Shown in pieces: positions 4,891 through 5,150 of a DNA stretch of 43,949 nt. The notes beneath the pieces are model-generated. The model did no database searches, was not told the DNA's origin, and worked only from the letters and a program-made list of their open reading frames with translations. The position numbers and the translations under genes are program-made. Numbering within the stretch: position 1 is the first letter of the stretch; each line of letters starts with the position of its first letter. The stretch comes from Escherichia phage vB_Ec_DUEC01. The stretch lies in sequence record PQ799475.1; one strand, 5' to 3'.

Positions 4891-5094
4891 TCAACGGAAT
4901 CTTGTGTTTAAATCCTGCTCGTGGACGACCCTCAGAACAGTGTCATAATCCCCGTATCTTCCAGGTTCAAATATATCTAATGCCTTGTAAGCAGACATTG
5001 CGTCAGGGAAAACCTGCAGAACCTTTTTAACCCGGCACAAGTCACCGTCGAACTCTTCATCGAACTCTTGAACTACTTCGCAAATTGCATACAT
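4891..5094 (-). CDS. hypothetical acidic protein (antisense moron)
   Basis: 67 aa; strong RBS AGGAGGTG; own promoter 5120-5150 and terminator 4865-4885; opposite strand to flanking head genes. Confidence 0.55.
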   Translation of the reverse strand: MYAICEVVQEFDEEFDGDLCRVKKVLQVFPDAMSAYKALDIFEPGRYGDYDTVLRVVHEQDLNTRFR

Positions 5095-5119
5095 TTTTCA
5101 CCTCCTGTTTAAGTTAACT

Positions 5120-5150
5120 GAATAGTACCCTATTATATTGGGGTGTGCAA
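5120..5150 (-). promoter_or_regulatory. sigma70-like promoter TTGCAC-N17-TACTAT (minus strand)
   Basis: -35 TTGCAC, 17-bp spacer, -10 TACTAT; 31-bp element identical to 13885-13915. Confidence 0.6.

Follow-up and report, generated by a model that had tools for sequence, protein, structure and literature searches.

A moron-like accessory-gene cassette behind a predicted early promoter in Escherichia phage vB_Ec_DUEC01

Two described kinds of phage accessory-gene unit come closest to the locus treated here. One is the moron (Juhala et al., 2000, with the definition as summarised in passages of PMC10914365 and PMC2839356); in the discussion of the latter, classical morons are thought to arrive by illegitimate recombination and to have no conserved flanks. 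The other is the PeSL, the promoter-early stem-loop mobile regulatory cassette of T4-type phages (PMC2839356, PMC4122927). Escherichia phage vB_Ec_DUEC01 (record PQ799475.1; its 43,949 nt are called the window) carries, backwards within its head genes, a 67-aa open reading frame (ORF67) behind a 31-bp element, GAATAGTACCCTATTATATTGGGGTGTGCAA, that reads TTGCAC-N17-TACTAT on the minus strand. The ORF67 unit is an ordinary moron-like cassette with a predicted early promoter, unusually clean in form, set in a recurrent slot and tied to a putative phage-wide operator regulon. An element of the same sequence and at the same genomic positions has already been reported from PHIRE output in three genome papers, on fBC-Eco01 (PMC9825357), Golestan (PMC7203180), and SGP-C (PMC8790156), which give it without analysis of hexamers, dyad, regulator or cassette turnover. 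The first of these calls the seven shared sites 'phage RNAP promoters', gives the consensus tgAATAGTa-ccTATTat-T, and names no phage RNA polymerase gene (PMC9825357).

The cassette spans 4865-5164 and consists of terminator, ORF67, ribosome-binding site (RBS) and untranslated region (UTR), and promoter:

4865-4885, no single strand: bidirectional terminator, adjoining the ORF67 stop codon; its minus strand falls in the family AAAACTAAGGCCCC-N4/5-GGGGCCTTTT
4891-5094, minus strand: ORF67, the cargo gene; 67 aa, acidic, pI 4.5, phage-only
5095-5119, minus strand: 5′ UTR with the RBS AGGAGG (5106-5101); the same UTR type occurs with five different cargos in relatives
5120-5150, minus strand: promoter copy 1 (class A, see below); -35 TTGCAC at 5150-5145, 17-bp spacer, -10 TACTAT at 5127-5122

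The ATG of ORF67 (5094-5092) stands 27 nt past the -10. Directly after the stop codon comes an 8-bp GC-rich hairpin followed by a U-run, with folding energies computed in silico of -16.2 and -16.5 kcal/mol on the two strands (z about -3.8 to -3.9). An earlier note on this DNA, made from the sequence alone, had described an acidic 67-aa ORF at these coordinates with a bidirectional terminator downstream, and both descriptions hold (14 D/E vs 8 K/R; a hairpin stable on either strand). It had placed the gene between head-morphogenesis and spanin/scaffold genes, which is correct for the Rz-like spanin gene (5470-5856); the other neighbour is a Hoc-like head-decoration gene (4400-4861), and the head-morphogenesis gene sits one gene further upstream. 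The position is an operon boundary, between the terminator of the Hoc-like gene and the promoter of the spanin/scaffold/capsid operon. Since a bidirectional terminator closes off one side of ORF67 and a divergent promoter the other, the gene must have its own promoter somewhere in 5095-5217.

The window is a Kagunavirus genome. The best match to its positions 3500-7500, in a megablast search that returned 485 related phage records, is Escherichia phage VerenaMeyer_Bas76 (99.7% identity), a Kagunavirus of the BASEL collection in the subfamily Guernseyvirinae. Detailed comparisons were made with K1G, fFiEco02, the Jerseyviruses S102 and VSt10, and the more distant Cornellvirus Shemara, and viral contigs were taken from IMG/VR, some loci of which are the same genomes as GenBank records. 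The DNA to the right of ORF67 (5165-5470) is found in 183 records at 95-99% identity, and the matches start at window positions 5092, 5100, 5115/5119 or 5165, that is at or just inside the promoter/UTR, or past it. The interval from the Hoc-like stop codon to 5165, called slot 1, differs in content between representative phages:

Slot 1 in the window: ORF67
Slot 1 in fFiEco02: 173-aa sliding-clamp-like protein
Slot 1 in S102: 242-aa N6/N4 DNA methyltransferase (PF01555)
Slot 1 in SETP13: 141-aa endonuclease-VII-like protein
Slot 1 in RP180: 81-aa protein
Slot 1 in ZCEC5: 74-aa protein
Slot 1 in Golestan: 33-aa protein and 114-aa lipoprotein-like protein
Slot 1 in K1G: empty (37 bp)

Every occupied slot follows one order, namely Hoc stop codon, AAGGCCCC-loop-GGGGCCTTAGTTTT, cargo stop codon, cargo, start codon, RBS, UTR, and promoter, with the start codon at a fixed offset from the promoter. 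At least ten unrelated cargo families occur in this frame, and no slot-1 cargo was found elsewhere in the compared genomes. Occupancy was surveyed in all viral contigs that contain an invariant anchor sequence 130 bp away, a choice that avoids selecting for the promoter. The 29 evaluable loci comprise 22 occupied slots (20 without two that duplicate RP180 and SETP13) and 7 empty ones, counts that lose some of their weight because the overlap of IMG/VR and GenBank leaves them not fully independent. The promoter, at 0-4 mismatches, is present in 22/22 occupied slots and in 0/7 empty ones, and it therefore belongs to the insert. Empty slots (K1G and six IMG/VR contigs) have 37-38 bp between the Hoc-like stop codon and the right flank, with no ORF and no promoter. 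The anatomy of the unit, the conservation of its position, its presence or absence among relatives, the replacement of its cargo at ORF precision and the standing of ORF67 as a gene are direct observations. As judged from these alignments, the slot-1 frame is conserved and the ORF that it encloses is exchangeable. In the structural sense, the earlier note was right to call the unit a moron: K1G and six other contigs lack it, and further phages have unrelated genes in its place.

ORF67 is a real, rare gene. A tblastn search found it in just 32 phage records; its homologs form 18 clusters at 62-96% identity, and an exhaustive profile search of 1.84 billion representatives gave 22 clusters. Its AlphaFold (AF2) model, with a pLDDT of 90.4, has a long beta-hairpin, a helix, and a third strand. 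Frame and length are kept in the homolog of VSt10, with 20 synonymous and 25 non-synonymous codon differences, so the coding conservation whose absence would have counted against the earlier note is present. That homolog lies in another position, the junction of the portal and head-morphogenesis genes (slot 0), again backwards, downstream of a TTGCTT-N17-TACTAT promoter with the dyad and upstream of the same AAAACTAAGGCCCC...GGGGCCTT terminator. S102, VSt10, and apparently fBC-Eco01 have a cassette in slot 0, likewise backwards. Elsewhere in the family, a member lies backwards between the portal and MuF-like genes of Klebsiella phage Geezett, and another is the first gene after the endolysin in Shemara. 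Our best guess is that ORF67 encodes an early host- or defence-directed accessory protein, given the early promoter and its slot-mates, which include a DNA methyltransferase and membrane- or lipoprotein-like proteins, together with the Imm-like protein at copy 2 of the promoter.

The 31-mer occurs in two exact copies, at 5120-5150 and at 13886-13916 (0.00 chance matches expected, 100 shuffles). The earlier note had the exact duplication right and gave the second copy as 13885-13915, one base off. The exact motif TTGCAC-N17-TACTAT is present at four sites in the window, those beyond the note's pair lying at 36841-36871 (2 mismatches to the 31-mer, opposite strand) and 38211-38239:

13886-13916, minus strand: promoter copy 2 (class A); same as copy 1; heads a conserved antisense operon in the tail module (slot 2)
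36841-36871, plus strand: promoter copy 3 (class A); 2 mismatches; heads a small-ORF early operon, start codon 36904
About 38211-38240, plus strand: fourth class A promoter; same hexamers and dyad, other spacer; heads a DUF7170 small ORF, start 38271

When the first three copies are aligned with 80-nt flanks, similarity sets in with the initial T of TTGCAC and tails off a few bases past TACTAT; since these limits match the span of the hexamers, the repeat is exactly promoter-sized. Using the promoter as search pattern, 47 viral-contig loci were recovered, none outside slot 1, slot 2, and the early operon, and at each of these three positions relatives show alternative first genes. Together with those of the window, 50/50 copies have the right orientation, with RBS and start codon at a fixed offset, in agreement with the minus-strand promoter that had been proposed for both copies (hexamers at 5150-5145 and 5127-5122 for the first). 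Exact identity of copies 1 and 2 is limited to this phage lineage, relatives differing by 1-4 bases. Concerted evolution of the two copies was tested and rejected, as the slot-2 promoter of Jerseyvirus S102 is quite different. Also rejected was an internal TATAAT with an upstream ATCACA, which a promoter scan reported at copy 2 only: the ATCACA differs between copies, and copy 3 has CATAAT in place of TATAAT. The fold of the promoter region is not significant (z -0.29), and the region is therefore not an RNA element. Most likely, the 31-mer represents the core (-35 to +2) of an early promoter of the host sigma-70 type, with activity and early timing at these sites predicted from sequence features. 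Behind copy 3, the first gene (36904 onward) starts MFKKGQLV throughout a common family, and the rest of the ~60-aa protein varies widely between phages; either a fold-constrained N-terminus or recombination just within the coding sequence would give this pattern.

The element also contains the dyad AATAG-N4-CTATT, which at copy 1 (5121-5134) overlaps the -10, upstream of a predicted start near 5115. The dyad has 7 exact occurrences in the window (0.02 expected) and 14 at no more than one mismatch (1.03 expected). An unbiased scan of all 5-mer half-site dyads with gaps of 0-8 put it at the top both in the window (7, against a null maximum of 3) and in S102 (5); no enrichment was found in the early half of Shemara. 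Eight promoters bear the dyad, and in 7/8 it accompanies a -35/-10 pair at exactly 17 bp, aimed at the adjoining gene. In class A (TTGCAC-N17-TACTAT) the dyad is offset by 16 nt from the -35 start and covers the -10; these promoters head ORF67, the slot-2 operon, and two small-ORF early operons. In class B (TTGAC[A/G]-N17-TATAGT) the offset is 10 nt and the dyad lies within the spacer, ahead of three replication-module operons. The remaining sites surround or precede replication and regulator genes:

30909-30937, minus strand: class B promoter TTGACA-N17-TATAGT, upstream of the Gp2.5/Enc34-like SSB and DNA polymerase genes
27353-27381, minus strand: class B promoter TTGACG-N17-TATAGT, upstream of small-ORF, methyltransferase, and helicase genes
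33209-33271, no single strand: divergent switch region, two dyads 44 bp apart, before the helix-turn-helix (HTH) gene
33237-33209, minus strand: class B promoter TTGACA-N17-TATAGT of the switch region, dyad 33214-33227
Dyad 33258-33271, plus strand: eighth site, the regulator's own promoter, extended -10 TGgTACTAT, imperfect dyad
33302-33517, plus strand: candidate dyad binder, a 71-aa Cro/C1-type HTH protein (PF01381, 3.9e-13)

By sequence, the closest solved relatives of the 71-aa protein are phage 434 Cro and 434 repressor (E ~1e-5), both of which bind 14-bp dyad operators. The dyad sites are kept position by position in K1G, fFiEco02, and S102, and at slot 1 the -35 of the promoters varies more than the dyad does. 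The dyad is probably the operator of the phage's 434-Cro-like HTH protein (33302-33517), a reading of the sequence that draws on the fact that both dyad registers are repressor-type positions, and such an operator accounts for the conserved spacer better than duplication on its own would. What had been taken for the duplication of one promoter is in fact one pair in a family of eight, which also stands before small-ORF early operons, replication operons, and the regulator gene; the earlier interpretation is in this respect partly supported, right in outline and too narrow. Outside the promoter count is a site at 3299-3331, where TATAGTATGCTATT, a one-mismatch dyad (site at 3318) that lies over the annotated head-morphogenesis start codon, comes after a terminator-like hairpin. 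PHIRE also reports its equivalent in Golestan, and it may be due to chance or be the scar of a slot-0 cassette.

How cargos are replaced can be read from the breakpoints. In blastn comparisons of the window with S102 and with fFiEco02, homology is lost at 4891 and regained at 5091/5092, which are the stop and start codons of ORF67. The clamp-like cargo is found with two UTR types, and one UTR type is found with five cargos; some slot-1 UTRs contain a TCGAAACGAG segment typical of the early-operon UTR; and at two polymorphic promoter positions all four combinations occur, not linked to slot. UTR type, promoter variant, and cargo thus reassort independently, which calls for crossovers inside the 60-bp promoter/UTR region. 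These breakpoint and mosaic patterns are those expected from recombination in the short conserved promoter/UTR and terminator, short of proof, and the promoter-mediated recombination suggested in the earlier note would fit them; we infer this route from sequence comparison. The terminator motif AAAACTAAGGCCCC-N4/5-GGGGCCTTTT has three copies in the window (4867, 11893, and 24764), all at convergent gene junctions, and it also frames cassettes in S102 and VSt10. A further observation concerns S102, where 6415-6804, comprising the slot-1 promoter and right flank, is ~96% identical to window 5091-5470; its other promoters and the flanking genes are just 70-84% identical to those of the window, which suggests strong constraint or recent inter-genus exchange at this stretch.

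As a whole, these data are best explained by a host early promoter with a Cro-like operator, an exchangeable moron cassette at slot 1, and a conserved operon at copy 2, an account that we regard as probable. The promoter TTGCAC-N17-TACTAT would be served by host RNA polymerase at several fixed genome positions, and the 71-aa HTH protein, encoded between two dyads, would regulate its own synthesis and turn the early promoters off as infection advances. The slot-1 unit would act as an insulated backwards moron cassette made up of promoter, 21-nt UTR with RBS, ORF67, and bidirectional terminator, and its conserved promoter/UTR and terminator would most likely serve as homology arms for cargo exchange during co-infection. 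Copy 2 would drive a conserved antisense early operon encoding the Imm-like protein, a metallophosphoesterase, and small ORFs. Several observations weigh against this account. TTGCAC/TACTAT agrees with the sigma-70 consensus at just 7/12 positions, and a generic sigma-70 scan did not report the 31-bp element, whose spacer holds a perfect TATAAT; the miss is put down to TTGCAC sharing only 3/6 positions with TTGACA. The searched literature contained no mapped transcription starts or expression data for Guernseyvirinae phages. The recognition helix of the S102 protein differs from that of the window, yet the dyad is shared, and the Shemara helix resembles that of S102, yet Shemara is without the dyad; there is accordingly no clean co-variation of helix and dyad, and the assignment of the regulator is circumstantial. 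A second HTH protein (HTH_17) is encoded at 36239-36535. Finally, cargo turnover is equally explicable by rare illegitimate events followed by homologous recombination in the flanks.

Among the other explanations, that of a promoter for a phage-encoded RNA polymerase has the published label for the same seven sites in its favour (PMC9825357), and the strongly conserved spacer does recall the promoters of single-subunit RNA polymerases. However, no such gene is annotated in Bas76 (85 genes), K1G, fFiEco02, or S102, and the paper names none; the motif has a TTG-type -35 and a TAnnnT -10 at exactly 17 bp; the dyad also lies within near-consensus TTGACA-N17-TATAGT promoters; and PHIRE detects repeated 20-mers only. 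This explanation is close to refuted and, in our judgement, untenable. Still further from acceptance is the idea that the identity of copies 1 and 2 reflects a recent functionless duplication or a chance repeat. It could appeal to the restriction of that identity to the present lineage, and it is refuted by the comparative data, in view of the zero chance expectation, synteny over two genera and 47 metagenomic loci, and strict orientation and spacing relative to start codons.

Two rivals retain more weight. The promoter may be read correctly and the dyad be something other than an operator, kept by needs at the level of RNA polymerase (spacer shape, or overlapping -10-like hexamers on both strands) or by common descent; or else the dyad may be bound by another factor, such as the HTH_17 protein or a host factor, possibly one that activates weak class A promoters. 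CTATT is indeed part of the class A -10 TACTAT, a helper is conceivable for hexamers as weak as those of class A, and the missing co-variation and second HTH gene noted above would suit another binder. However, in class B the register differs (offset 10 vs 16) and the dyad lies outside both hexamers; its conservation exceeds that of the slot-1 -35, and it is the most enriched de novo dyad in two genera; both registers are classic repressor positions; and two dyads bracket the promoter region of the HTH gene. We hold this alternative to be rather doubtful. Slightly less so, and still unlikely, is that cargo diversity arose independently of promoter and terminator, by rare illegitimate or homing-endonuclease insertion that then spread via long homology of flanking genes, the tidy boundaries reflecting selection for expression signals. 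These phages have many HNH/GIY-YIG-type genes, and among the cargos is an endonuclease VII-like protein; illegitimate recombination is what the classical moron model takes for granted, at least in the relevant passage of PMC2839356; and the right flank, at 95-98% identity across genera, offers ample homology. Against it stand the coincidence of both breakpoints with stop and start codons in independent comparisons, the independent reassortment of UTR, promoter variant, and cargo, and the VSt10 homolog of ORF67, which occupies another slot in the same promoter-terminator frame.

With the operator-bearing early promoter preferred, its second copy can be considered in its own setting. According to the deposited Bas76 annotation, which supplies the layout, packaging, head, and tail genes lie on the plus strand from 1 to ~24.7 kb, and the replication module on the minus strand at ~24.9-36.5 kb; small ORFs, lysis genes, and further small ORFs follow on the plus strand to the genome end. 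Among the annotated genes of Bas76, K1G, fFiEco02, and S102 there is no RNA polymerase, integrase, or repressor/lysogeny module. The window has no tRNAs and no Rfam match at gathering thresholds (none at E<=1 in 5100-5500). Within the tail module, copy 2 precedes the following features:

13666-13857, minus strand: first slot-2 gene, a T4 Imm-like superinfection-immunity membrane protein (PF14373)
12497-13627, minus strand: 376-aa metallophosphoesterase / 'DNA repair exonuclease', the conserved core of the slot-2 operon
12300-12500 and 12080-12310, minus strand: small ORFs of the slot-2 operon, the remainder of which spans 12080-13627
11891-11910, no single strand: terminator of the repeated family, at the convergent junction of the tail-tube gene and the slot-2 operon

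The Imm-like protein has 63 aa if translated from the RBS-preceded ATG at 13857 and 68 aa from the ATG at 13872. Among relatives, the first gene alternates between two Imm-like variants and a 108-aa secreted protein, and the metallophosphoesterase is kept in all relatives examined. By these comparisons, the slot-2 unit would be a conserved antisense early operon within the tail module rather than a moron. The earlier note's view of the second copy as the driver of an insert therefore falls, and in the comparison of relatives that it proposed for each insert, slot 1 proves variable or empty and slot 2 varies only in its first gene. A third backwards unit of the tail module, at 17097-17843 (minus strand), is present in the window and fFiEco02, not in Bas76. 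Its 248-aa product is of the T5orf172/MUG113 kind (GIY-YIG-like) and includes a CapR-like zinc-finger region; the gene is probably mobile, of the homing-endonuclease type. Upstream (17844-17910) there is a TTGCCA-N17-TAGCAT with a one-mismatch dyad, and downstream a hairpin (17077-17094).

On the other side of slot 1, a plus-strand promoter (TTGACT 5218-5223, N17, TAAGCT 5241-5246 with TGa) is followed by a ~105-nt block (~5240-5345) that is 100% invariant in 16 distinct Kagunavirus/Jerseyvirus sequences, the capsid genes of which differ by 16-30%. The invariant-block region covers 5218-5444 (plus strand), with its core at about 5253-5365. A 36-aa ORF annotated there has few variable sites and no codon-position bias. 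Unlike the window, fFiEco02 and 13 viral contigs have a diverged paralog of this leader (78-88% identity, same promoter) ahead of the early operon. When both copy types are aligned, they support a two-hairpin structure with 4 compensatory pairs, in which 97.9% of cells pair vs 31-43% in slid controls (covariation score 0.221 vs at most 0.051); the leader has no Rfam match, and a terminator stands ~190 nt downstream (5427-5444). By analogy, it could be a put-like or lambda-6S-like antitermination leader, and it may be a more original lead than the cassette beside it. In the place where relatives have the leader paralog, the window has a perfect consensus promoter, TTGACA-N17-TATAAT (36529-36557, plus strand), then a hairpin-rich untranslated stretch (e.g., GGGGTTGACGAACCC...GGGATTCGTCAACCCC) and a terminator (36748-36775) just upstream of copy 3, making 36529-36775 a candidate non-coding RNA of ~220 nt. 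Between the back-to-back promoters at slot 1 lie an inverted repeat, TTATTCCA-N15-TGGAATAA (5173-5203), and a palindrome, CTATTCGAATAG (5206-5217); because empty-slot phages retain both, they are part of the upstream region of the backbone promoter.

If the preferred account is true, these phages, public in the BASEL collection, would offer a tractable model for how small virulent phages take up and exchange early accessory genes while their essential late operons stay intact. Kagunaviruses are already in use for synthetic-phage work, and the slot would provide an engineering landing pad in them, with promoter, RBS, and terminator at a permissive site. The account would also correct the reading of a motif given without mechanism in three genome papers, one of which invokes a phage RNA polymerase, and the slot-1 cargos, ORF67 among them, form a short list of candidate host-takeover or anti-defence proteins.

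Compared with described systems, the putative regulator resembles that of phages 434 and lambda in its small size, in its HTH of Cro/C1 type, and in being encoded where divergent promoters carry two dyads: its gene lies beside its own putative operators (dyads 33214 and 33258), the 14-bp dyads overlap core promoter elements, and by analogy auto-regulation and early turn-down would be expected. It differs in the dyad sequence, AATAG-N4-CTATT, in the distribution of the dyads over eight promoters genome-wide, including the late region, rather than in OL/OR clusters, and in belonging to a phage without integrase or lysogeny module. Like morons, as passages of PMC10914365 and PMC2839356 present them, the ORF67 unit consists of one accessory ORF that is followed by a predicted factor-independent terminator and lies between genes that are adjacent in relatives, and its sequence anatomy would insulate it from transcription of the surrounding late operon. 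Morons also have a sigma-70-type promoter of their own, to which the predicted promoter TTGCAC-N17-TACTAT, present in 22/22 occupied slots and in agreement with the consensus at 7/12 positions, would correspond. In contrast to classical morons, the unit is carried by a virulent phage, in which there are no lysogens for it to benefit; its promoter, far from being idiosyncratic, is one more copy from the early promoter/operator family of the phage itself, so expression is not independent of the phage programme; and the slot is a recurrent hotspot in which at least ten cargos have been swapped at ORF precision. Given the lack of a lysogeny module and the origin of the promoter in the phage's own early family, the unit is therefore a moron in structure and not of the classical lysogen-benefit kind.

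In the PeSLs of T4-type phages, hairpin and promoter are joined in a composite unit of ~100 bp that stands on either side of every ORF, and the ORFs form same-strand arrays within hyperplastic regions. In the window, promoter and terminator stand at opposite ends of one backwards unit, in the late structural module of a 44-kb siphovirus; the promoter is not preceded by a hairpin, nor is the terminator followed by a promoter. A much broader reading, which we put forward tentatively and think improbable in its full extent, is that Guernseyvirinae siphoviruses have a PeSL-like system, in which a portable early promoter/operator and a repeated bidirectional terminator would frame ORF-precise cassettes that move among three or four fixed slots (including backwards ones in late operons) and between genera. 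All of them would come under a single Cro-like regulon for early shut-off, which would keep them from running head-on into late transcription, and the slot would adjoin a previously undescribed, covariation-supported promoter-proximal RNA, present as two paralogous copies in many relatives and possibly a put-like antitermination element. In any case, the locus exemplifies a known way of shuffling phage accessory genes, as a clear new instance with no new mechanism, and it should not surprise specialists conceptually. What it has in common with PeSLs is a repeated early promoter, a repeated stem-loop terminator, and breakpoints within these motifs. In both, sigma-70-like early promoters and terminator hairpins (of GGGG...CCCC type) recur genome-wide and flank small accessory ORFs; insertions, deletions, and replacements between close relatives fall at the motifs; and the published PeSL crossovers, between -10, Shine-Dalgarno sequence, and ATG, lie where those proposed here would fall.

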